A stretch of 64,000 nucleotides of DNA from the NCBI GenBank assembly GCA_963802255.1, contig CAWDHY010000001.1, positions 491,842 through 555,841 on the forward strand. The letters are read 5' to 3'. Source of the stretch: Candidatus Magasanikiibacteriota bacterium. Lineage in GTDB: Bacteria > Patescibacteriota > Patescibacteriia > Magasanikbacterales > GWA2-37-8. Shown in pieces: positions 20,290 through 30,222 of this stretch; position 1 is the first letter of the stretch; each line of letters opens with the position of its first letter. Under the pieces are notes generated by a model. The model made no database searches. It saw only the letters and a list, made by a program, of their open reading frames with translations, and was not told the origin of the DNA. A program made the translations under genes and the position numbers.

Positions 20290-22791
20290 ATGCAAAAAAG
20301 GAAAATTAGCTATTTTGTTATAGCAATATTTTGTTTATTTTTCATTGCCTTACCCGTAATGGCAGGTTCACCAAGCGGAAATGATTGGTTCCAATTGTTG
20401 GCCTCTCCTTACACGGGCGCTGATAATACGGGTGATGGAGGGTCTGGTTCGGGAGATGACCTCAATTATTACTATGTCGGTCAAACTTGGACGCAGGCAA
20501 TACAAATTCGATCAGACAACACTGACGCGGCAAATATTTGGCTGGAACATGACGCTCTCTATACTACTTCCTCAAATCTTCTCACCGGTACATATTTTCC
20601 CAACTGGTCAGGCCAAACTGTTAGCGTGATTTCCGGCACGAATTTCAGAATCAAATCAACGGGATATCGTACAAGTGGGGTGTCTTCAGGCCTTGGTAAT
20701 TTCGGTTCAGTACAATTTACCGCAATTCGTCCTGCTACTGCAAATTATGGCACAAGTTCTCCTGCGGTCATAAATATCAACATCGGCACTGTAGGAAATA
20801 CTACTGAATCAAACATATCGTATCTTGGAACTGATATTTTAGACGACGCAGAAGATTTTAGTTTTCAAGTATGGGCTGACACGAAAAAGCCCTATGCTTT
20901 GAATCCGTCTCCCGGAAATGGCACATCCGGTATAGATGTGGACGCGCTTTACACATTTGACCTGCGCGATTCAAAAAATGGCGAGGGCGACAACTCCGGC
21001 GTTGGCACTGGCGTAGATACAGCCACACCACCGGGAATAATCACTTTTGACGACGGTGGCGGAGCAGTAAGTTACACCTCTTTTGATTCTTACAGCTGTT
21101 CCGGTATCTGGGGAACAAATTTATGCAATGTATCAATAAACCCAACCAGTCCGTCCGGAATAGCCGGAGATTCAAGAAATTGGGAATATAATACTTCATA
21201 CACTATAAATATTGGCGGTTTTCAAGATTACGCTTCTACAAATCAAGACCAGTTAGGCGACGCGAATGGTCCGAATACAGCGGACACAAAAACCTGGACA
21301 TTTATCACAGAAGCGGATACTGTCGCTCCTCGCGTTCAATCAGAAACACCGGCCAGGGGCTCATCGGGTAATAGCGTTTCCACAAATGTTACAGTTGAAA
21401 TAGTTGATAAAAAAACATATCCTGGGAATATTTCCGGCACTGGCGTCGCGCCAAGCACATGCCGGATAAGAATATCATCCCCATCTTTTTCTGCCACTGT
21501 TTACCAGCAAGGTTCAGGCGGTGTTACGGTAACGCCAATTGATTATGGTTATAGTTTTGTCATCAATCCGGCCAGCGATTTTGCCCAAAATGAAACCGTC
21601 TCTGTTAGTGTATATGATTGTCAGGATCTGGCATCAAATACTATGGTTACAGACAATTACACTTTTTCAACCGCTGATTCTGATAGGCCTTATGTTGACA
21701 CTTTGAATCCGGCTAACGACGCGACTATTTCAGAAACAGACAATATTTCATTTCATATTAAAGACGATGGCACAGGAGTTGATATAACCAAGACCGTCGT
21801 CTATCTAAACGGCATTTATTATACCAACAGCGGTGGAGCCGGACAGGTTACGGTTAATGATACGAGAATAACCTTTGCATCCAGTTTAAATTTTAATGGC
21901 GGTAATTATGGAGGCGATACGACCGCTCGTACCGGCTCGGCAAACGATTACGCCATTACTATTGATCCGCAAGCCAATTTTGCTACCGGCGAGGCGGTGC
22001 CGATTATAATATATTCCGAAGATACCACGGGTAATCTTATGGAGAGATTTGTCTATGCCGTTGCCACAACCGGTGGAAGTTGTCCTTCAGGCTCAACATA
22101 CTGCGGGGCAAATACTTCCTGGGATGCGGGATTGCTTCAATGCACCGGAACTGGCGGAGGAGGTGGGAGCTGTGGTGGAACAGGCGGAGGAACGACTCCC
22201 CTGTCTATCAACCCGTTAAATGTTACTGCCACGCAAGTTGACGAAGATACAGTGCTCGTCGTTTGGTACACGAGCAAACCGGCAAGCGGAAGAGTGATTT
22301 ATGGGTTAAACTCCCCCGCTGAATATGGAACTTCGCCAAATTATAATTATCCTTATTCAACAGCGGAAAACAGCGAAGAGACCATCTATCATTCAATGAT
22401 GGTAAACGGGTTGTCACCGGGCCAAATTTATTATTTCAGACCGGTCAGTAAAAGCGGGAGTGAAGAATTGAGGGGTCCGGAAGTGCAAATGGCGGTTCGT
22501 TTTGGAACTGAGCAGATTACGGTTCCTTGTGAAGAAAAGACAATCACCTGTCCGACTTGCCCTGTCTGCCAGAAAACAACAGTTCCGACAACTCGCCCGC
22601 CAGCGACAACGCCCGTGACACCGGTACAGCCACCGTCAGTGATTTCACCGCCAGTGGTTGATACAATTACTAAATCACTTATTAAAATATTGAATATTCA
22701 AATTCAGGGTGCCGAACAAACAGAAACCGATAAAATTTGGATAAATGGAAGCAGTATTCCTTCAATTAAAATAAAGATGATTATATATTAG
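20290..22791 (+). CDS. large secreted surface protein: signal peptide, multiple bacterial Ig-like (SbsA-type) repeats, C-terminal FN3 domain and Pro/Thr-rich tail
   Basis: Signal peptide 'MQKRKISYFVIAIFCLFFIALPVMAGS'. Repeated modules such as 'DRPYVDTLNPANDATISETDNISFHIKDDGTGVDITKTVVYLNG'. FN3 module 'VTATQVDEDTVLVVWYTSKPASGRVIYG...GLSPGQIYYFRPVS'. Then 'TTRPPATTPVTPVQPP'. Confidence 0.6.
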   Translation: MQKRKISYFVIAIFCLFFIALPVMAGSPSGNDWFQLLASPYTGADNTGDGGSGSGDDLNYYYVGQTWTQAIQIRSDNTDAANIWLEHDALYTTSSNLLTGTYFPNWSGQTVSVISGTNFRIKSTGYRTSGVSSGLGNFGSVQFTAIRPATANYGTSSPAVININIGTVGNTTESNISYLGTDILDDAEDFSFQVWADTKKPYALNPSPGNGTSGIDVDALYTFDLRDSKNGEGDNSGVGTGVDTATPPGIITFDDGGGAVSYTSFDSYSCSGIWGTNLCNVSINPTSPSGIAGDSRNWEYNTSYTINIGGFQDYASTNQDQLGDANGPNTADTKTWTFITEADTVAPRVQSETPARGSSGNSVSTNVTVEIVDKKTYPGNISGTGVAPSTCRIRISSPSFSATVYQQGSGGVTVTPIDYGYSFVINPASDFAQNETVSVSVYDCQDLASNTMVTDNYTFSTADSDRPYVDTLNPANDATISETDNISFHIKDDGTGVDITKTVVYLNGIYYTNSGGAGQVTVNDTRITFASSLNFNGGNYGGDTTARTGSANDYAITIDPQANFATGEAVPIIIYSEDTTGNLMERFVYAVATTGGSCPSGSTYCGANTSWDAGLLQCTGTGGGGGSCGGTGGGTTPLSINPLNVTATQVDEDTVLVVWYTSKPASGRVIYGLNSPAEYGTSPNYNYPYSTAENSEETIYHSMMVNGLSPGQIYYFRPVSKSGSEELRGPEVQMAVRFGTEQITVPCEEKTITCPTCPVCQKTTVPTTRPPATTPVTPVQPPSVISPPVVDTITKSLIKILNIQIQGAEQTETDKIWINGSSIPSIKIKMIIY

Positions 22792-22792
22792 T

Positions 22793-23830
22793 ATGAGTCA
22801 AACAGAAAATACATCTCAACCTCAAGAATATCAACTTCAAAGCGACCCGGAAGGAAATTGGCTGATTAAAATTGATAATAATTTATCCGCCGGAGCACAT
22901 GTTGTTTCTGTTGAAGATGAAAATGGAAACACCGACCAGGCGATGATGTATGTGGTAAAAGAAGCCGGCACAGTGCAAAAAGAAGTATCGGTAATAGATA
23001 GAGTTACGGAAACTGTTCCCGGATTTTTTTGGTGGATATTGTGGCTCTTGGTTCTTGCTATCGCTCTATTATCCGCATATCTTTTGCGCGTTTCCAGGAA
23101 GGCGGACAATTTGGAAAATATCATGCCTCAGGAAACGAAACACAATTATGCGATAAAAGCGCTTATTCTCACGATTTTGGCCTTTATCTGTGTCCTGATT
23201 ACGGGCATATACATCAACCGTCAGACAAATTTCCTTTCTCGTTTTATGTCAAAAAATCAGGAACCGGTGGTGATTAATGAATTATCAGGTCAGATAGTCG
23301 CTCCATTTACCGGCATCGGTGTCGGCGGGGTTGATGTATCAAGCGGAGAAACATCCATAAGGACTTCCGGCTCGGGCTCGTTTATCTTCAGCAATGTCGC
23401 TCAGGAAACAGGCGTTAAAATTACATATTCTTCATTATTGCGTCCGATTGTCTTTATCCCTTCGGTCGGTCAGGATAAACAGCATTTGAATATATATTTT
23501 GACGCTGAGATGTATAACATCCTCTTTAGAGTGATGGACGCCGAGGCGCGCGGACAGATTAGAGATGTTTATACCAAATATGCTTCAAAACAAATCAAGG
23601 AATTAAATAACGAAAATCTTTTCACCACAAACTACAATACCGCTCTGACACCGGAAAATGTTAACGATCAGGAGCTTGTGGTTGTGAAGAATGAAATTGT
23701 GGATAACTACTCGGTGGATAGGTATGATATTGATTTTTCTAAGGTTGTACTGATAACTGTAAATATTCACGGTAAAAACGAGGTCTACGCGCTCGCGCTT
23801 GAGGACAATGAATGGAAGCTGGTGAAATAA
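22793..23830 (+). CDS. membrane protein of unknown function, translationally coupled to the large surface protein
   Basis: Its start is 1 nt after the stop of the upstream gene. Two hydrophobic helices ('FFWWILWLLVLAIALLSAYLL', 'ALILTILAFICVLITGIYI'). No recognisable family. Confidence 0.5.
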   Translation: MSQTENTSQPQEYQLQSDPEGNWLIKIDNNLSAGAHVVSVEDENGNTDQAMMYVVKEAGTVQKEVSVIDRVTETVPGFFWWILWLLVLAIALLSAYLLRVSRKADNLENIMPQETKHNYAIKALILTILAFICVLITGIYINRQTNFLSRFMSKNQEPVVINELSGQIVAPFTGIGVGGVDVSSGETSIRTSGSGSFIFSNVAQETGVKITYSSLLRPIVFIPSVGQDKQHLNIYFDAEMYNILFRVMDAEARGQIRDVYTKYASKQIKELNNENLFTTNYNTALTPENVNDQELVVVKNEIVDNYSVDRYDIDFSKVVLITVNIHGKNEVYALALEDNEWKLVK

Positions 23831-23844
23831 TAAAAAATCAAAAT

Positions 23845-23875
23845 AAAAAACGGCCACATGTGGCCGTTTTTTTAA
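23845..23875. terminator. bidirectional rho-independent terminator
   Basis: 'aaaaaacGGCCACatgtGGCCGttttttt' between convergent genes. Confidence 0.7.
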
Positions 23876-23890
23876 TAATATAAAAATTTA

Positions 23891-24550
23891 TTACCTATCA
23901 CCTTCTACATCAAGATTCTTCATGAGCAAACTCAAATCAACTGAATTAACAACAGTATCCTGATTCAAATTTTCTCTAACATCATTACCAGTCGCGTCAT
24001 CTTGATCTAGGTGACGCAATAAGAGGGATAAATCTACTGAATTAACCACATCATCGCCTAAAGTAGTGGTAGAATTGCCTATATCATTAATATCGCCGGC
24101 TAACAGGCGTATGGGACCAAATGATGATGAATTATCCGCCTGGGTAAAATTTAGTGTGTTTGTCGCGTTATCAACCAGCGTTATATCATTTAATTTTCGT
24201 GATAAATGCTGCCAGCCCTTAATACAGACATCGTATGTACCGGATGCGACATTAAAAGGAATTAATGTCAGATATTCACCGGCAACCGTGGTTGTGGCCA
24301 GCTCATCCATTGAATCAAGTATCACATCATCCCCGTCCGTAGCAGTACGGACTGTAATATAAAAATTTGTTTCCCAATTAGTGCTGGACGCACCGGATCG
24401 CCCTTCCGGAATTGCCCATTGGACTACTGCCGAAGTGGAACTGTCTACATAAAGATAAACATCATATTCAGCGGCAATAACATTAGCCGTTCCGGCTATA
24501 AGGAGCAGTGTTAAAGCGATAATAAGTGATTTATTGCTTCCGATTCCCAT
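23891..24550 (-). CDS. secreted protein with C-terminal dockerin-like (EF-hand-type Ca-binding) repeat pair
   Basis: Probable signal peptide from 'MGIGSNKSLIIALTLLLIAGTANVIAAEY'. The C-terminus has two dockerin-type segments, 'GDINDIGNSTTTLGDDVVNSVDLSLLLRHL' and 'GNDVRENLNQDTVVNSVDLSLLMKNL'. Confidence 0.5.
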   Translation of the reverse strand: MGIGSNKSLIIALTLLLIAGTANVIAAEYDVYLYVDSSTSAVVQWAIPEGRSGASSTNWETNFYITVRTATDGDDVILDSMDELATTTVAGEYLTLIPFNVASGTYDVCIKGWQHLSRKLNDITLVDNATNTLNFTQADNSSSFGPIRLLAGDINDIGNSTTTLGDDVVNSVDLSLLLRHLDQDDATGNDVRENLNQDTVVNSVDLSLLMKNLDVEGDR

Positions 24551-24551
24551 A

Positions 24552-25328
24552 TTAGTTGACGTAAGCAGTGATGATAAAATGACCATGATAAACACCTGAC
24601 GGTTGATTATAGTCAGGATTTACTTCGGCTTTCAAATTAATCGTAGTAGTAACAAAACTTACATTAGCGGCACTGGATCGGCTTAATGTTAAAGCTGAAG
24701 TGGTAAATTTATCCCAGCATTTTCCGGGTGTATCAACACCACCCGAATAATTACAGGTGTCAGAACCATTATCCAGGAAACGTTGGATTATATCATCTCC
24801 TTCGGGGGAAAAACCAAAACCAGCGCTAGTCGTGGTGAAGGCCCAGTCAAAGTCCGGGTCCGAGCCAACGGAGGAATAATCCGGAAAAGTAGTAGATGCA
24901 TCAATCTGGAGAGAGGGCGAAGTTGATGCAGTAATTTGTAATGAATAGCCGGTTGTGTTATCTGTTAAAACAGCTAAATTTACAGAGCCCGTAGCAGTAC
25001 CACCTGTCATCCCGGGAATATTCATTAAAATTGTTGAAGTTGTATCAATAGAAAGTGTGATTTGTGCCTCCTGATCCATTTGCTGATAACCGGCACTTAA
25101 ACTGAATATATCGCTGTATGACCAACCGGTTGCTATTTCTCCCAGAGTATCCTCTTCAATAAAACTATCGCTTGTTCCTAATCCACCGCCAAAATTAACA
25201 GAGTCCCTTTCAATTTTCCAGCTATCACTCTCCATTACAGACCCAAAAACCGGCGTTACAAAAACGCCGGTTAGAAGTATCATTGCTACAACAAAACAAA
25301 TTTTTATAGGTCTATTATACCGCATCAT
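24552..25328 (-). CDS. secreted WxL-like domain protein (paralog of 26465..27079)
   Basis: Probable start 'MMRYNRPIKICFVVAMILLTGVFVTPVFG' (ORF-track start 25397 is an out-of-frame read-through). Shares 'GMTGGTATG', a mid motif 'TGYSLQITAS' and C-terminal 'QPSGVYHGHFIITAYVN' with the paralog. These resemble WxL motifs 1 and 2. Confidence 0.4.
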   Translation of the reverse strand: MMRYNRPIKICFVVAMILLTGVFVTPVFGSVMESDSWKIERDSVNFGGGLGTSDSFIEEDTLGEIATGWSYSDIFSLSAGYQQMDQEAQITLSIDTTSTILMNIPGMTGGTATGSVNLAVLTDNTTGYSLQITASTSPSLQIDASTTFPDYSSVGSDPDFDWAFTTTSAGFGFSPEGDDIIQRFLDNGSDTCNYSGGVDTPGKCWDKFTTSALTLSRSSAANVSFVTTTINLKAEVNPDYNQPSGVYHGHFIITAYVN

Positions 25329-25334
25329 AACACT

Positions 25335-26383
25335 ATGATTGCGGCGGCGTATCATTAGTTGATGTATTATTCTTTTTTTTGCCGCCTTTATATTCAAAGT
25401 TTTTCTTAAACCATTTTCTGATACCTCTGATAATTACTAACAATAGGAATAATCCGCCAAGAATTATGGCAATTACTTTCCAAGGTAGCACCCAAAAGGC
25501 AACAGTTTTTGTATCAATTTGGTTTCCATATCCGCGATTTAAAGATATTTTGGCTTTATATCGCCCTATTGTTAATTCCCGGTCCCATGTTTTTGTCTCT
25601 GACTCTTTCAGAGTTAGGCATTACATAATATGGGTCAATTGAAATCTGTTCAACCATCATGCCATAGAGATTTGTTATTTCAACAACTCCATAAGGGGTA
25701 TTATATACATTTCCACTATTTTCGTATGACCAATTAAAATTAACCGGAGCACTCCTATACCACCTATTATCGGACTTAAAAGATTTTAAGACACCTTCTT
25801 CTTTTACATCGCCCGGAATGCGGATAAAAAATAAGTTAGCAATACGGGTTTCATAACTGACGCCACCCCTTACTTCTTCTTCCTTAAGGCGTTCTTCTTC
25901 AAGCGGGTCCATTGACTCATAGGAAAACATTATAGCGCCATAAAGACCGCCCGGCTGGGCATCCATCGGAATAGAAATAACGACCGGTATATTTGCTCTA
26001 TCGCCTGGTTGAAGTACGATTTCATAAGTATCTAAAGTGATATAATCCTTTAATGAATACGGACCTTTTTCATCGCCTAAAAATTTAATAAGCTCACCCA
26101 GTTTATCAGGTGATGTAAAATCTTCAACCTTGAGAATAAACCTCATTTGTTGTTGAAAACGATTAGTAATCGTAACATTCTTAACTGATGTTTCGCCTGG
26201 TTTAATTACCATCTCGGTTTTTCCCGGACTCACCACAAAATCATCTTTAATGGGAGTATCCTTAATCTGATCTATTGTGTAAATTCGTTCAATCGTCGTA
26301 GCTTTCGCTACCGGAATTATTGAAGGAAGCGCAAACACACATACAGTGATAAATAATCCTAATATTCTTTTACTCTTACTCAT
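25335..26383 (-). pseudogene. DUF916-like (WxL-cluster associated) cell-surface protein; C-terminal TM anchor displaced into another frame by a frameshift near 25556-25580
   Basis: Signal peptide 'MSKSKRILGLFITVCVFALPSIIPVAKA'. The body 'FVVSPGKTEMVIKPGETSVKNVTITNR...MRFILKVEDF' is chaperone/MSP-like. The annotated frame stops at 25556 ('...NNRAI*'). The adjacent frame continues with '...ISLNRGYGNQIDTKTVAFWVLPWKVIAIILGGLFLLLVIIRGIRKWFKKNFEYKGGKKKNNTSTNDTPPQS*', a textbook TM anchor plus basic tail. Confidence 0.45.
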
Positions 26384-26464
26384 ATTGATTGAATATTATA
26401 TAAATAATTTATTTAATTACCCAGATGCCCCAATTTTGGGGCATCCGGATAGTAAATAAATATA

Positions 26465-27079
26465 CTATTTCATTGCTGCTGTTAATGTGACATGAGCCGT
26501 ATAAGGCCCGGATGGTTGGTCGCCATCAGCAGCCACTACAGCTTGGTAATACATGGTCGTTGACGTCCCTCCCCCTGGGCCAGGAATAGTAGCGTTATGA
26601 TCTGATCCCTCGTTAACCAAAGCATCAGATGTTGTTAACGGGAAATAGTAAGAACTATTGGTAGTGGCACCAAAGCAAGCACCTGACGCACAAGCCCATG
26701 CTCCCGCACTGATATTCGCGAAAGAATGCCCTGCCGCGATACCAGTTCCTTGCATTGCAGTATCATTTCCTGCTTTTGCGTTTAATGTCCAACCAGTACT
26801 ATTGTTTGTATATACGGTACAAGCTCTATTGCCTGTAGCTGTTCCGCCGGTCATACCTAAGATGTTCGGCGTCATATAAAGGGTTGATGTTGTGCAATCC
26901 AAAGCAATTTCACCATCAACACCTAACGTTACATCATATTCGCAACTTGGTGGATAACCAACGGATGACGTTGAATACGGTCCGTAGTCATAAGCTTTAG
27001 ATGTCGCACCCTCAAGTAACATAAATCCATTGAATGCAACAATCGCAAATCCTACAACGATTCCTAAAATTTTCTTCAT
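26465..27079 (-). CDS. secreted WxL-like domain protein (paralog of 24552..25328)
   Basis: Signal peptide 'MKKILGIVVGFAIVAFNGFMLL'. Has 'GMTGGTATG', 'STGWTLNAKAG' (WxL-like motif) and C-terminal 'QPSGPYTAHVTLTAAMK'. Confidence 0.4.
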   Translation of the reverse strand: MKKILGIVVGFAIVAFNGFMLLEGATSKAYDYGPYSTSSVGYPPSCEYDVTLGVDGEIALDCTTSTLYMTPNILGMTGGTATGNRACTVYTNNSTGWTLNAKAGNDTAMQGTGIAAGHSFANISAGAWACASGACFGATTNSSYYFPLTTSDALVNEGSDHNATIPGPGGGTSTTMYYQAVVAADGDQPSGPYTAHVTLTAAMK

Positions 27080-27350: not shown

Positions 27351-27464
27351 ATGAATAGCGCGCTTAAATCCCGCATAAAACATGCCCGAAAAAACACAAA
27401 AATGGGTAAAAAACTGCGGTCACAAACCAAAAAATTGAGAGAAAAACGCAAAGTCAACTATTAA
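27351..27464 (+). CDS. 37-aa highly basic small protein (ribosomal-protein-like or nucleic-acid-binding composition), own promoter and terminator
   Basis: 'MNSALKSRIKHARKNTKMGKKLRSQTKKLREKRKVNY', with 16 of 37 residues K or R. The stop is immediately followed by a strong terminator. Confidence 0.35.
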   Translation: MNSALKSRIKHARKNTKMGKKLRSQTKKLREKRKVNY

Positions 27465-27497
27465 AAAATACCCTGTAAATACAGGGTATTTTTATTA
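27464..27497. terminator. bidirectional rho-independent terminator
   Basis: 'aaaaaaTACCCTGTAaaTACAGGGTAttttt'. Also terminates the minus-strand gene that ends at 27506. Confidence 0.7.
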
Positions 27498-27505
27498 TTT
27501 TTGCC

Positions 27506-28033
27506 TTATTCAACCTCAATTTTTGCCGTATTTATCCCGTCGCACATAATATAATTGGTACCCGCCGTTTTTGCTGTGGCGATTACGAAACCATAGGCGC
27601 CGATATGATATGACGCTGTACCGACTTTTATGGTATGGGCTTTTCCATCCCGGTTGTCCAACATAAACGAACTTCCCTTTTTAATTATCATTGTCCCTGG
27701 AGTTGCTCGTCCGTTAATAAATTGAAAACGGTATCCTGAAGCGCTGTAAATCTTTAATGCGTTTGTGTATGAGAGCGTAGCTGCTCCCGGCGCCTTTACA
27801 GCGGGTTGGGTAGTCGTTTTGGTGGTCTTTGTCGTTGTCGCAACTGTCGAGGTTGTTGATGTCGCCATGTCTTCTGTTGTGGAAGTTGTGTCTGATGTTT
27901 CTTCCCCCATTTGCTCAGTCTGTGTGTTATCATTTGATGCGGGCGCGTTTTTTCTTGATGTGAAGGCAAATACACCTAGTACTAACACTGCCACAGCTAT
28001 AGCAACAATCGCAATGATTTTATTTTTTTCCAT
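27506..28033 (-). CDS. membrane-anchored Thr-rich secreted protein of unknown function
   Basis: N-terminal TM 'IIAIVAIAVAVLVLGVFAF', Thr-rich linker 'TSTTSTVATTTKTTKTTTQP', about 100-aa C-terminal globular domain. Confidence 0.5.
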   Translation of the reverse strand: MEKNKIIAIVAIAVAVLVLGVFAFTSRKNAPASNDNTQTEQMGEETSDTTSTTEDMATSTTSTVATTTKTTKTTTQPAVKAPGAATLSYTNALKIYSASGYRFQFINGRATPGTMIIKKGSSFMLDNRDGKAHTIKVGTASYHIGAYGFVIATAKTAGTNYIMCDGINTAKIEVE

Positions 28034-28046
28034 AATTATAGGCTAT

Positions 28047-29417
28047 TTAAAGTGATACTTGAATTTCGTTTGAATATACCCCGCATTTACCTCCGAGATA
28101 TTCACAAACTCTTACATAGTATAGCCCATCACCATCAAAAGCGTCAATTGTGGCAGAGGTTGCGTTCGGGTCAGTCAAGTACTGATATTTATCACCATCA
28201 CGGCAGGGATATGTCGGGTGGGTATTTTTAGAATAGACCACTTTAAAGCCCTGGTCTGAATATCCACTCACCCGCCATAATACTTGACCACTGCCCAGAG
28301 ATGAAACGCTGATTGAGCTTACCGCGTCACTTTTTTCTGTGACTGCCTCTTTTTCCGCAGTAGGCGCTGTAACTTTGATATTATTGCTATATACGCCACA
28401 TTTACCGCCTAAATACTGGCATACGCGGAAATAATAGGTTTTACCATCGGTTATAGCCCATTTGTACGATCTGACACCGCTTTCGGACAGATAAATATAG
28501 TCATTACCCGGATAAACTGGATTTATTGAGGTGCTTTTAACGAGTTTAAAGCCATTCGGTGAACTGACATTTTTTACCGACCAGCTCAAACTTACCCCAC
28601 CGGCAACCGCTTTGGCTGATAATGTGATACCACTCGCCACTGTTTCAACCGGTTTTTCAGTGGATACAGGTTTTTCTTCTTCTGCTATTTTTTCTGTGGA
28701 TGTTTCAGCAGTGTCTTCTGTAGCTGAAATTTCTTCTGTCATTTTTGCGTCTTCAGCTTCGTTCCATTTAACAAACGCATCCTTGTCAGCAGTGGCAATC
28801 TTTACAAATACTTTTTCAGCCTTCTTGTTATCGGAGTTAAGCACATAATATTTATTGCCCTGTTCAACAAGTATTTCTCCCTCCCCTACTCCGATAATTT
28901 TTACTTTGTTTTCATAAACTTCAACGCCTTTAATTTTTTCCTCGTTGATTGTCTTGTAAGCAGTGCCAACCGACTGATAGGTAGCGCCTGCAGACGCCAC
29001 TTCAAAAATACGTTCTGATTTAACAACGCGGGTATATGCCTGGCCTTTATTATTTGTAATCACAAAATGATCCGGGTCCAAACTGGTGAGCGTGACGGAC
29101 GAGTTGCTATTCAAGCGGATAGCACTGCCGTCGTCCAGATTGATAATTGCCTTGCCCGCCCCGATTATTTCCACTGAATCGCCTTCTTTTAGACTGGTAT
29201 CAGCGCTTGCGCGAGTCCACGCTCCATCGCCAGACTTGTATTCTACCGAGCCTTCAACAAATATGATTTGTGCGCCTACGGTTGTCGCCATCTGGTTTTC
29301 AGTCGGTGCCTGCACTTTTTCCGGCCTGGTATAGTAATAAAATACGCCCAGAACAGCCGCCAGAAATACAAAAAATATTATCCGGCCGGTTGTCCCGTTT
29401 GTTTGTGTTTTGTCCAT
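28047..29417 (-). CDS. membrane-anchored protein with FecR-like domain and two tandem approx. 85-aa Cys-containing C-terminal repeats
   Basis: N-terminal TM. The FecR-like segment is 'IIGAGKAIINLDDGSAIRLNSNSSVTLTS'. The two repeats each end with 'YYFRVCQYLGGKCGVYSNNIKVT' / 'YYVRVCEYLGGKCGVYSNEIQVS'. Confidence 0.45.
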   Translation of the reverse strand: MDKTQTNGTTGRIIFFVFLAAVLGVFYYYTRPEKVQAPTENQMATTVGAQIIFVEGSVEYKSGDGAWTRASADTSLKEGDSVEIIGAGKAIINLDDGSAIRLNSNSSVTLTSLDPDHFVITNNKGQAYTRVVKSERIFEVASAGATYQSVGTAYKTINEEKIKGVEVYENKVKIIGVGEGEILVEQGNKYYVLNSDNKKAEKVFVKIATADKDAFVKWNEAEDAKMTEEISATEDTAETSTEKIAEEEKPVSTEKPVETVASGITLSAKAVAGGVSLSWSVKNVSSPNGFKLVKSTSINPVYPGNDYIYLSESGVRSYKWAITDGKTYYFRVCQYLGGKCGVYSNNIKVTAPTAEKEAVTEKSDAVSSISVSSLGSGQVLWRVSGYSDQGFKVVYSKNTHPTYPCRDGDKYQYLTDPNATSATIDAFDGDGLYYVRVCEYLGGKCGVYSNEIQVSL

Positions 29418-29524: not shown

Positions 29525-29572
29525 CTTTCACAATTTATTCCGGGGTAGCGCAGCGGTAGCGCAGTTGACTGT

Positions 29573-30176
29573 GGGCACGTTCTCGCCCCATAATAATTTT
29601 TTTATGGGAAGGGAAAAAAGGAGATATGCTGATCGTGCCGCCTATATGATAAAAGCGGTTGATAAAAGACGGAAACTAATCCGAAAAATGTCAGTCGAAT
29701 ATATGGGTGGTCGCTGTGCAATTTGTGGCTATAATAAATGTAATTATGCGCTTGAATTCCATCATAAGAATTCTGACGCGAAAGATTTCGGCATTTCAGC
29801 TAAAGGATATACCAGGAGCTGGGAGAAAGTTAAAGCCGAGCTTGATAAGTGCGTTTTATTGTGCGCAAATTGCCACAGAGAAATACACGAAGGCATGACG
29901 CAGCTTCCTTGAGTAATCAAGGTCGTAAACGAGGTGAATTGTCCCGATAAGCAATCGGGATCTCGCAAATATATAATTTTAGTGAAGCGGGACTGGGAGC
30001 CTAAACTGTGAAAACAGTATGGTAATCAGCAGCCGAGCCCGCAAAGGCGGGAAGGTTCAGAGACTATCCTTTTACAGGAGTACATCAATTTTTTTGATGG
30101 AAGCGCCTCGCTCCTTCGATTTATATGCGAAGGATGATGATATAGTCCACCCTATTTGGAAACAGATAGACAAGTG
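29573..30176 (+). mobile_element. group I self-splicing intron with internal HNH homing-endonuclease ORF
   Basis: Recognisable group I core elements: P-like 'GCGGGA' (29986-29991), Q-like 'CCCGC' (30037-30041), R 'GUUCAGAGACUA' (30055-30066), S 'GAUAUAGUCC' (30139-30148), P2-like hairpin 'UCCCGAUaagcaAUCGGGA', terminal G at 30176. The ORF occupies a 5' peripheral loop. Confidence 0.7.
29604..29912 (+). CDS. HNH homing endonuclease (intron-encoded)
   Basis: '...CAICGYNKCNYALEFHHKNSDAKDFGIS...LLCANCHREIH': CxxC...HH...N...CxxCH, the HNH motif. The start could be ATG 29604 (MGREK...) or 29690 (MSVEY...). The ORF-track TTG start at 29565 lies inside the tRNA exon and is rejected. Confidence 0.7.
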   Translation: MGREKRRYADRAAYMIKAVDKRRKLIRKMSVEYMGGRCAICGYNKCNYALEFHHKNSDAKDFGISAKGYTRSWEKVKAELDKCVLLCANCHREIHEGMTQLP

Positions 30177-30222
30177 TAATCAATTGGTCGTGGGTTCGAA
30201 TCCCACCCCCGGAGCGAAAGAG

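Follow-up and report, generated by a model that had tools for sequence, protein, structure and literature searches.

Background

A pilus of the CPR bacteria that is assembled with membrane-anchored PapD-like chaperones was described in a 2026 preprint (10.64898/2026.03.03.709456). Its host is Candidatus Mycosynbacter amalyticus, a CPR member of the Saccharimonadia, and one of its components, PamR, is an FN3 protein with a C-terminal transmembrane (TM) helix (10.64898/2026.03.03.709456). The filament of this Pam pilus has been observed, and the model of its chaperones and its assembly rests on AlphaFold predictions in this preprint, which mentions neither WxL nor DUF916 (10.64898/2026.03.03.709456).

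[quoted passage not shown] The solved complex 9i25 and AF2 models show that WxLIP binds the WxL domain, and in the modelled contact (AF2) an inserted strand completes the WxL sandwich.

Here we compare these systems, together with the chaperone-usher pili (Pap/Fim, CFA/I, Csu, Caf1), with an operon from Candidatus Magasanikiibacteriota. The operon is present in a window (the whole stretch of DNA that was analysed) of 64,000 nt, which corresponds to positions 491,842-555,841 of the forward strand of contig CAWDHY010000001.1. We conclude that it is probably a minimal, usher-less, chaperone-assisted module for surface assembly, either of a fibre or for display, of the type of the CPR Pam pilus.

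Results and discussion

Organisation of the locus

The ORF listing of the window contains the four successive minus-strand genes that were reported in the first-pass annotation, here called A, B, C and D (Table 1). The signal peptides that had been seen on all four were also recognised: read by eye, the N-termini of A-D start with a basic n-region, which is followed by a hydrophobic core and by small residues ahead of the mature protein. At most 4 nt separate B from C and C from D. A-D form one transcription unit bounded by two hairpins, of which the upstream one was found by a consensus scan only.

Table 1. Features of the operon and its direct surroundings (positions in the 64,000-nt window)
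Feature	Position	Strand	Description
Upstream hairpin	27464..27493		palindromic, GC-containing, T/A runs; between gene A and the upstream gene 27506-28033
Gene A	26465..27079	-	204 aa; signal peptide and single pilin-like domain, without long N-terminal extension
Gene B, N-terminal part	25556..26383	-	275 aa; signal peptide, DUF916-like first Ig-like domain, most of second Ig-like domain
Gene B, frame break	25590..25594	-	A5 homopolymer
Gene B, C-terminal part, shifted frame	25333..25593	-	end of second domain, FWVLPWK motif, TM helix, basic tail
Gene C	24552..25328 (alternative start 25355)	-	258 aa; signal peptide, conserved N-terminal extension, pilin-like domain; PamT homologue
Gene C, N-terminal extension	25065..25241	-	residues 30-88; three SxNY/GG-type repeats; candidate donor or linker strand
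Gene D	23891..24550 (ORF to 24595)	-	219 aa from the likely ATG at 24550
Gene D, dockerin-like repeats	23912..24058	-	residues 165-213: GDDVVNSVDLSLLLRHL and NQDTVVNSVDLSLLMKNL
Downstream hairpin	23845..23872	-	terminator-like, 12-bp stem, T tail; directly 3' of D; common to the convergent gene
Two convergent genes	20290..23830	+	833-aa Big_5/FN3-like secreted protein; 345-aa membrane protein

The reading frame of B is broken at the A5 run. Deletion of one A results in a protein of 349 aa, which can be aligned over its full length with intact homologues of 320-360 aa. The C-terminal TM anchor that had been proposed for B does exist, but it is encoded in another frame than the 275-aa ORF. The frameshift is either a homopolymer sequencing error or it marks an inactivated or phase-variable locus. 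From the split at the A5 run it could be argued that the locus is decayed or non-functional, a pseudogene cluster in this organism, and the public record of the contig indeed holds the same truncated B product of 275 aa. We regard this as improbable, since, apart from the frameshift, each half of B is intact and highly similar to its homologues up to the last residue, A, C and D are intact, and single-base errors in homopolymers are frequent in assemblies. Moreover, decay would bear on the state of the locus and not on its nature.

B is a member of the DUF916/WxLIP family

The B sequence in the window scored 25.8 bits (E=1e-5) against Pfam PF06030 (WxLIP_PGBD), narrowly missing the threshold of 27.3 bits, and 38 of the 49 members of the B family matched this model. 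Among the CPR relatives of B, some are already assigned to PF06030 by precomputed annotation or bear the NCBI name 'DUF916'. In view of these names and of the Pam preprint of 2026, the earlier statement that nothing comparable had been described in CPR is outdated. The B-family profile matched the solved EfmWxLIP1 in the PDB (E=4e-7), and comparison of the family with seven Firmicutes WxLIPs by hhalign gave a probability of 97.3% (E=2.5e-11; reversed decoy P=0.056).

The AF2 model of B (pLDDT 90.5) shows two beta domains and a C-terminal helix at residues 301-328. Its best Foldseek match was the WxLIP 9i25_C (E=1.6e-13), with 9i25_C and 9i1y both at E≈1e-13; after the WxLIPs came RbmA and the chaperones CfaA, CsuC, EcpB and Caf1M. 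After correction of the frameshift, B has the architecture of a WxLIP, with two Ig-like domains followed by a C-terminal TM helix, and its 349 aa lie within the 320-380 aa expected of this family. B is thus a genuine homologue of the DUF916/WxLIP family with a PapD-like chaperone fold, in agreement with the DUF916-type, PapD-like body that had been recognised at first pass.

No Pfam match to DUF3324 (PF11797, WxLIP_HBD) was found in B, and hhalign aligned B with the WxLIPs over domain 1 only; the Foldseek alignment of the B model with 9i25_C (275 columns) covers both domains. The N-terminal WxLIP motif NQIDKxxxYFDLK is not kept, and the CPR B family has DFVVGPGK.E at this place.

The paralogous subunits A and C

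Judged by their sequences, A and C are true paralogs, with a similarity far above chance (BLASTP E=3e-11, 29% identity; A-family against C-family profile by hhalign, E=1.2e-54). All the motifs on which their paralogy had first been based are present: GMTGGTATG is common to both, STGWTL occurs in A and TTGYSL in C, and the C-terminal motif reads QPSGPYTAHVTLTA in A and QPSGVYHGHFIITA in C.

Both proteins had also been likened to WxL proteins, and for membership of that family we found no support. In a Pfam scan, neither A nor C matched WxL (PF13731) at E<=1, nor did any of the 80 A-family members. A custom WxL HMM, built from 14 Firmicutes WxL domains, recovered all Firmicutes WxL proteins (E 1e-66 to 1e-11) and gave no match below E=6 among the CPR a and C ORFs. 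Comparisons of the subunit families with WxL by hhalign gave P values of 0.0095 and 0.03 (probability 4% and 1.6%), with only the last strand aligned. WxL domains have two Trp-x-Leu motifs on adjacent strands. The first of these is present in A (GWTL) and in C (GYSL), and the second is missing, the C-terminal strand being without Trp (HVTLTA, FIITA; family consensus T.TA). Pfam, custom HMM and hhalign were all negative for A and C as WxL-domain proteins. A itself had no Pfam match, and Caf1 and PsaS gave weak matches in 4-5 of the 80 A-family members.

A significant match of C was obtained with the NCBIfam model CPR_pilus_PamT (NF058579, "CPR-type pilus protein PamT"; 35.7 bits, E=5.7e-9), and PamT was matched by 57 of the 61 C homologues (best 3.8e-13). 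The equivalog cutoff of this model is 240 bits, so C is a distant homologue of PamT and not an ortholog.

In the AF2 monomer model of C, the domain at residues ~110-258 is predicted with confidence (pLDDT >90). The best Foldseek matches of this model were mostly donor-strand fibre subunits, namely CfaE, the pilin domains of PapG and FimH, CsuA/B, CfaB, PapE and TasA; with a best E of 9e-4 and TM-scores of 0.2-0.5, the likeness of fold between C and the pilins is weak. Among the best 50 matches, the solved WxL chain 9i25_A was absent.

The N-terminal extension of C (residues 30-88) is better conserved than the domain, with a mean top-residue frequency of 0.64 versus 0.56. In the monomer model it is disordered (pLDDT <50). 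The same pattern of conservation with low pLDDT is shown by the donated Pam linker (10.64898/2026.03.03.709456). The extension is the likely donor strand. In longer relatives of C, this segment lies between the passenger domains and the C-terminal domain. The C profile matches 2431 clusters at the 50%-identity level. Sixteen of 146 representative C relatives are B–C fusions and 33 have extra sequence ahead of or inside the C module; in most of the latter, passengers precede the extension and the C-like domain, as in tip adhesins or PamA/B.

Conservation of the module and resemblance to WxL clusters

About 70 of 80 Patescibacteria loci retain the gene order a–B–C–X. In most cases the fourth gene, X, codes for an FN3 protein with a C-terminal TM helix. 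The a–B–C part mirrors the WxL–WxLIP–WxL order of Firmicutes, as in E. faecium pEfm12493, where proteins of 232, 340 and 237 aa are encoded in this order. As in the WxL clusters, two paralogous subunit genes lie beside one WxLIP gene; the subunits encoded here are not WxL by sequence. The csc-like arrangement of small subunit, WxLIP and second subunit that had been pointed out earlier is a real resemblance at the level of the system.

No match to the usher family was found in any of the eight proteins of the region, nor in the related loci. When the 64-kb window was scanned with the subunit profiles, only A and C were matched, both of them single-domain proteins; two-domain major pilins of the PamA/PamB type are absent from the operon, and two-domain relatives exist elsewhere.

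The likeness to WxL clusters could be read as a non-filamentous display of the WxL type, in which the membrane-anchored B binds A and C via an inserted strand and stabilises them at the cell surface. A and C would then be extremely diverged WxL-like anchors, holding themselves or fused passengers on the wall, and no polymer would be formed. We consider this rather unlikely. B is demonstrably a WxLIP homologue, the gene order equals that of WxL–WxLIP–WxL in E. faecium, E. mundtii and Niallia plasmids, and larger relatives bear the C-like domain C-terminally behind passengers, as large WxL proteins do, but all statistical tests of A and C against WxL were negative. Motif V.TDN..G[WY].L is collinear with VqVtD.RG..GW.L and the final strand G.Y.AT.T.TA can be set beside tY.s.LtW.L, with hhalign scores slightly above those of decoys; against this, the second of the two Trp-x-Leu motifs is lacking, the best 50 structural matches of the C model include pilins and not 9i25_A, and the cluster has no small LPXTG protein. 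Furthermore, PamT, to which C shows significant similarity, belongs to a filament system that has been observed.

Gene D and its dockerin-like module

In D, a signal peptide precedes a beta-rich domain of ~130 aa, and the protein ends with a dockerin-like module. The first-pass annotation had described two canonical dockerin repeats. The repeats are visible in the sequence as two segments of the type xDxxVNSVDLSLLxxxL at the end of the protein, and as in type I dockerins (PF00404) they form two tandem segments of ~22 residues with the Ca-binding pattern D/N-x-D/N…VNSVDL…L. The earlier call was roughly right but is weakly supported: D scored 18.3-18.7 bits against Dockerin_1 (E≈0.002-0.003), below the Pfam threshold of 22.9 bits. 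Three of five D orthologues also gave weak, sub-threshold matches (15.6-18.3 bits). In further contrast to type I dockerins, the D locus has no glycoside hydrolase context, and no match to cohesin families was found among the seven flanking proteins scanned.

D is restricted to a small sub-clade, and most related loci encode in its slot an FN3 protein with a C-terminal TM helix. This PamR-like tether is missing from the window, with D in its place. In the closest relatives, D-like genes were always accompanied by genes for a surface protein of 800-845 aa and a membrane protein of 344 aa, and the convergent 833-aa and 345-aa proteins of the window may be functionally linked. This constant company, the duplicated dockerin-like segment and the weak Dockerin_1 matches in the orthologues would fit a cellulosome-like scaffold, with the dockerin of D docking on a cohesin of a neighbouring surface protein and A-C as accessory wall proteins. 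Such a scaffold is very improbable, given that every dockerin score is under the Pfam threshold, that a cohesin match is absent in the flanking proteins scanned and that D occurs in the small sub-clade only, whereas a–B–C is the conserved core. Dockerin-like modules are, moreover, common outside cellulosomes.

Comparison with the described systems

With the Pam pilus the operon shares its CPR lineage, the Sec export of all components, subunits that are truncated Ig-like (pilin-fold) proteins and a PapD-like chaperone that keeps a C-terminal TM helix and has no usher, B being likened to it by fold and anchor. In both systems the linker or extension and the acceptor domain are the most conserved parts. 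C is similar to PamT, a PamR-like FN3 and TM protein is encoded in most related loci, and some related loci adjoin a gene for a giant Peptidase_S74 (tail-fibre-like) protein. The differences are that C is only a distant relative (36 bits against the 240-bit equivalog cutoff), that the two-domain major pilins PamA, PamB and PamE are absent here, that there is one chaperone instead of two, and that the window has, in the place of a PamR-like tether, a dockerin-like protein. In addition, the module is found in Parcubacteria/Magasanikbacteria-type lineages instead of Saccharimonadia or Microgenomatia, and it is known here from genes and monomer models, whereas the Pam filament was observed.

The WxL/csc clusters have in common with the operon the DUF916 domain and two-domain Ig-like body of B, an acidic insert of ~20 residues at the same position, the C-terminal TM helix, and a WxLIP gene that lies between the genes of two paralogous secreted subunits. 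In both, small forms with the domain alone occur alongside large passenger-bearing forms, and a chaperone-like contact by an inserted strand has been modelled for WxLIP and may be made by B as well. In contrast, A and C are not detectable WxL domains (the second motif is missing), the second domain of B has no Pfam DUF3324 match and its N-terminal motif differs, the small LPXTG protein is absent, and the host belongs to the CPR instead of the Bacilli.

The likeness to the classical, alternate and archaic chaperone-usher pili is one of fold: B resembles CfaA, CsuC, EcpB and Caf1M, C resembles the pilin domains of CfaE, PapG, FimH, CsuA/B and CfaB, and relatives in which a passenger at the N-terminus is combined with a pilin-like domain at the C-terminus resemble tip adhesins. 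However, an outer membrane and an usher are absent here, the chaperone is anchored in the membrane instead of soluble, and similarity in sequence is undetectable except for the sporadic weak matches to Caf1 and PsaS.

Proposed assembly

Based on these comparisons, a Pam-type assembly could proceed as follows. B would be exported by Sec and tethered to the cytoplasmic membrane by its C-terminal helix, exposing two Ig-like domains. A and C, also Sec-exported, would be subunits with a single pilin-like beta-sandwich domain as their core. At the outer side of the membrane, B would capture each subunit by inserting a strand into its incomplete sandwich (donor-strand complementation). The extension of C would then displace the chaperone strand in the preceding subunit (donor-strand exchange), giving a short fibre or stalk of C. 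As A has no extension, it could only accept a strand and would cap the fibre; we propose that this small paralog is an acceptor-only cap or a small subunit. In most related loci the base would be tethered by the PamR-like FN3 protein with its C-terminal TM helix. In this lineage D, secreted and with a dockerin-like Ca-binding module, would replace the gene of the FN3 tether, and it may connect the assembly with further surface proteins, among which the co-travelling proteins of 833 and 345 aa are possible partners.

Several observations were counted against the Pam-type reading: the weak likeness of fold between C and pilins, the PamT score below the cutoff, the frameshift in B, an operon without a PamA/PamB-like two-domain pilin and a PamR-like tether, and a PamT that is said to be without a linker strand (10.64898/2026.03.03.709456).

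Implications

The pairing of a DUF916/WxLIP chaperone with two secreted pilin-like subunits links the CPR Pam pilus to the Gram-positive WxL clusters. We tentatively suggest that the Pam pilus and the WxL/WxLIP (csc) clusters of Firmicutes might even be two branches of one ancient monoderm system, with the DUF916-type protein as the single-membrane counterpart of PapD. In such a system this protein would hold incomplete-sandwich subunits by strand complementation and pass them on without an usher. If this is true, donor-strand chemistry may underlie the assembly or display of WxL proteins, and the a–B–C module of Parcubacteria would be a minimal ancestral form of the Pam and WxL systems.

The lifestyle of CPR bacteria is one of attachment to other cells, and its least understood aspect is their surface appendages. 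Among Parcubacteria-type lineages, which lie outside those with reported Pam pilins, the compact a–B–C module is widely distributed, and its C-like domain looks like a portable unit at the C-terminus through which passenger domains of various kinds are joined to the system. B, which shares its family with the WxL-interacting protein of enterococci, listeriae and lactobacilli, connects a filament system of the CPR, in a concrete and testable way, with a locus for adhesion and virulence in Gram-positive bacteria, the mechanism of which is debated.

Organisation and relatives of the operon

The four consecutive minus-strand genes A, B, C and D lie between a hairpin on the A side and a strong terminator-like hairpin on the D side, with gaps of at most 4 nt between B and C and between C and D. 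Each of the four products begins with what resembles a signal peptide (judged by eye), and the G + C content of the region (~40%) is similar to that of the remainder of the window. A consensus scan showed no excess of promoter-like sites over shuffled sequence. One near-consensus sigma-70-like site (TTGAAA, 18 nt, TATAAT; 11 of 12 matches) lies ~55 nt before the start of D, still within the 3' end of C, and is a possible internal promoter for D. Neither a second copy nor an LPXTG partner was found within the 64-kb window.

Features of the operon and its surroundings (window positions)
Feature	Position	Strand	Description
Neighbours of D	20290-23830	plus	833-aa secreted Big_5/FN3-like protein, 345-aa membrane protein
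Hairpin, D side	23845-23872		strong, terminator-like
Gene D	23891-24550	minus	219 aa from most plausible ATG
Gene C	24552-25328	minus	ORF, 258 aa
Sigma-70-like site	24606-24635	minus	possible internal promoter
Gene B	25556-26383, then other frame to 25333	minus	ORF, frameshifted
A5 run	25590-25594	minus	reading frame of B breaks
Gene A	26465-27079	minus	ORF, 204 aa
Hairpin, A side	27464-27493		bounds the four genes
Two upstream genes	27506-29417	minus	456-aa and 175-aa products
Split tRNA gene (apparent)	29537-30215	plus	interrupted by group I intron, ~640 nt
HNH-like ORF	29565-29912		115 aa, inside the intron
Rfam Intron_gpI match	29845-30169		56.8 bits

The larger product encoded upstream of the operon has a FecR domain and duplicated C-terminal domains, the smaller one a TM helix and a region rich in Thr; neither gene was kept beside the cluster at the other loci compared. 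The halves of the apparent tRNA gene were delimited by eye (5' half TCCGGGGTAGCGCAGCGGTAGCGCAGTTGA…, 3' half …TCAATTGGTCGTGGGTTCGAATCCCACCCCCGGA), and ARAGORN called no tRNA in this interval.

With one genome taken per species, 80 related loci were collected across many Patescibacteria lineages: Magasanik-, Buchanan-, Jackson-, Kaiser-, Nomura-, Falkow-, Zambryski-, Taylor-, Campbell- and Nealsonbacteria and Paceibacterota. In about 70 of the 80 the order was an A-type gene a (~230 aa), B (~330 aa), C (~255 aa) and a fourth gene, X, whose product usually has 450-540 aa and combines FN3 domains with a C-terminal TM helix. Firmicutes clusters have the order WxL–WxLIP (WxL-interacting protein)–WxL, for example 232–340–237 aa on pEfm12493, and the analogy with csc/WxL clusters drawn in the first-pass annotation is real at the system level. 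On the E. faecalis plasmid p1_EfsC94, a WxLIP–WxL pair is flanked by genes for a lytic polysaccharide monooxygenase and for a pectate-lyase-like adhesin of 1424 aa. DUF916 is reportedly also mentioned in a 2025 paper on His-brace metalloproteins.

In three Kaiserbacteria loci (L001-L003), giant proteins ending in a Peptidase_S74 domain are encoded directly upstream of a–B–C (called lengths 1552-3164 aa, with some truncated at the end of the locus). Peptidase_S74 is a domain of the tail-fibre or endosialidase chaperone type. These proteins recall the tail-fibre-like neighbour described in connection with Pam, a CPR (Patescibacteria) pilus (10.64898/2026.03.03.709456). In that 2026 preprint two filaments of Ca. 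Mycosynbacter amalyticus, composed of PamA and PamB, were solved. On the basis of AlphaFold models, the membrane-anchored, PapD-like PamC and PamD were proposed to drive usher-less donor-strand exchange, with PamT as the tip and PamR, an FN3 protein with a TM helix, as the tether (10.64898/2026.03.03.709456). X resembles PamR in its FN3 domains and C-terminal TM helix. With a CPR relative now described (10.64898/2026.03.03.709456), it no longer holds that nothing like the operon is known in CPR.

B is a membrane-anchored WxLIP-type protein

The ORF of B as listed ends at 25556, and the TM segment is encoded in the other frame. Deletion of one A from the A5 run gives a B of 349 aa, alignable to intact homologues of 320-360 aa through their conserved end (RxxxxxWxRxFxFGRYxAxLxLNRGY…FWVLPWK, then the TM helix, then WFxxNFE). 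In the public record, this 628-kb contig carries a truncated product of 275 aa. The frameshift may reflect a homopolymer (assembly) error, a real inactivation leaving a pseudogene, or a phase-variable site.

B matched Pfam WxLIP_PGBD (PF06030) with E=1e-5 and 25.8 bits, narrowly missing the threshold of 27.3 bits; PF06030 matched 38 of 49 homologues, some of which were already annotated with it or named by NCBI as DUF916 proteins. A PDB search with the B-family profile found E. faecium WxLIP1 (9i25_C, 9i1y) at E=4e-7. A search for full-length EfmWxLIP1 with a 126-residue fragment returned fragments only, and the matching contig was a long-read assembly with many frameshifts; clean WxL and WxLIP sequences for comparison were taken from plasmid records instead. 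Aligned by hhalign with seven Firmicutes WxLIPs from these plasmids, the B family gave a probability of 97.3% (E=2.5e-11) covering the first domain, against P=0.056 for a reversed decoy.

The AlphaFold2 model of B (pLDDT 90.5) consists of two beta domains with a helical acidic insert (residues 160-173) and a C-terminal helix (301-328). B also has a conserved loop at residues ~100-114 (LLGxEKGPYSLKDY). Its best structural matches were 9i25_C (E=1.6e-13), from the entry entitled "WxLIP from Enterococcus faecium locus A bound to long WxL", and 9i1y, followed by RbmA and the chaperone-usher chaperones CfaA, CsuC, EcpB and Caf1M. The second domain of the family had no DUF3324 match in the Pfam scan, and the WxLIP motif NQIDKxxxYFDLK was not kept. 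B is a WxLIP/DUF916-type, PapD-like, membrane-anchored protein; its initial assignment to DUF916 is upheld by the Pfam matches of its homologues, the hhalign result and the structural match to 9i25_C.

C is a PamT-like subunit with a conserved extension

The NCBIfam model NF058579, "CPR-type pilus protein PamT", matched C (E=5.7e-9) and 57 of 61 C homologues (best 3.8e-13), all scoring far below its equivalog cutoff of 240 bits. No Pam model of NCBIfam matched A, B, D, X or the neighbours. The domain of C was modelled with confidence (pLDDT >90 from residue ~110), and Foldseek matched it mostly to donor-strand subunits (CfaE, the pilin domains of PapG and FimH, CsuA/B, CfaB, PapE, TasA), with weak scores (best E=9e-4). 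A few A-family members weakly matched Caf1 or PsaS. C is a PamT-like subunit with a pilin fold. The sole PDB match of the C-family profile, BtpiA, was at chance level and was discarded; a PDB sequence search with A alone gave no match.

Residues 30-88 of C contain three SxNY…GG-type repeats and end in AGYQQM. Conservation is higher here than in the folded domain (mean top-residue frequency 0.64 vs 0.56), yet the pLDDT of this segment in the monomer model is 40-51. In PamA and PamB, conservation is reported to be highest in the donated linker and in the site that binds it (10.64898/2026.03.03.709456). Because the extension of C is likewise conserved, yet unfolded, we infer that it is a donor or linker strand. 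A has no such N-terminal extension and would thus be able to accept a strand but not to donate one.

The C profile retrieved 2431 clusters (50%-identity level) at E<=1e-3 and 285 at E<=1e-30. B and C were called as a single protein in 16 of 146 new representatives (P0246, P0249, P0252-P0254, P0256, P0258, P0259, P0261, P0263, P0264, P0267, P0275, P0350, P0371 and P0381), where the TM helix of B runs directly into the signal-peptide-like segment of C; these fusions may be real or read-through gene calls. A further 33 of the 146 have extra sequence ahead of or within the C module, in most cases passenger domains (100-1950 residues) that come before both the extension and the C-like domain; in a few cases an inserted domain separates these two. 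Large surface proteins such as P0247 (670 aa), P0362 (1205 aa), P0296 (2187 aa), P0272 (365 aa) and ~30 others carry the SxNY extension and C-like domain C-terminally, behind unrelated passengers, e.g. FN3 repeats. This position suggests that the C-like module is a portable anchor or pilin domain; the layout is common to PamA/B, chaperone-usher tip adhesins and large WxL proteins.

No WxL domain is detectable in A or C

Sequence comparison identifies A and C as paralogs, well beyond chance (BLASTP E=3e-11; family profiles by hhalign E=1.2e-54 across 174 columns). The motifs reported for both in the first-pass annotation are present, and two collinear resemblances to WxL domains were seen: V.TDN..G[WY].L in A/C with VqVtD.RG..GW.L, and G.Y.AT.T.TA with tY.s.LtW.L. 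The second tryptophan is missing from A/C, and homology was unsupported by statistics. Pfam gave no match for A or C, nor WxL in 80 A-family members. An HMM built from 14 WxL domains (Enterococcus, Listeria, Bacillus and Niallia plasmids and an E. faecium chromosome) recovered all Firmicutes WxL and no CPR subunits, and reverse searches also failed. With hhalign, WxL gave P=0.0095 for the A family and 0.03 for the C family, aligning the last strand alone, against 0.18-0.67 for reversed decoys. All of these sequence tests were non-significant, and the WxL membership proposed for A and C was rejected. The solved WxL chain, 9i25_A, did not appear in the 50 best structural matches for the C model.

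D and its accompanying genes

Two repeats, GDDVVNSVDLSLLLRHL and NQDTVVNSVDLSLLMKNL, form the end of D. Dockerin_1 matches to D and to three of five orthologues did not reach threshold, and no cohesin family matched the flanking proteins scanned. Here and in the closest relatives of the window (L015, L017, L022 and L060) a D-like protein of ~220 aa takes the place of X, and its gene always occurs together with genes for a Big_5/FN3 protein (800-845 aa) and a membrane protein (344 aa), in either orientation.

A proposed minimal Pam-type module

The best-supported reading of the operon is a minimal Pam-type module. The membrane-tethered WxLIP/PapD-like chaperone B would hold secreted pilin-fold subunits by strand complementation, C would be passed onto the previous subunit through its conserved extension, and A would serve as a cap. 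Its main competitor is a WxL-like display complex that does not polymerise, and the two interpretations differ solely in whether the subunits form a polymer; we consider the chances of actual filament formation to be even. WxL and DUF916 are unmentioned in the Pam preprint (10.64898/2026.03.03.709456), and a link between the CPR Pam-type system and the WxLIP family was not found in the literature searched. Since B is homologous to WxLIP, whose complex with WxL has been solved and modelled as strand insertion, the general chaperone-subunit principle very probably applies to this CPR system.
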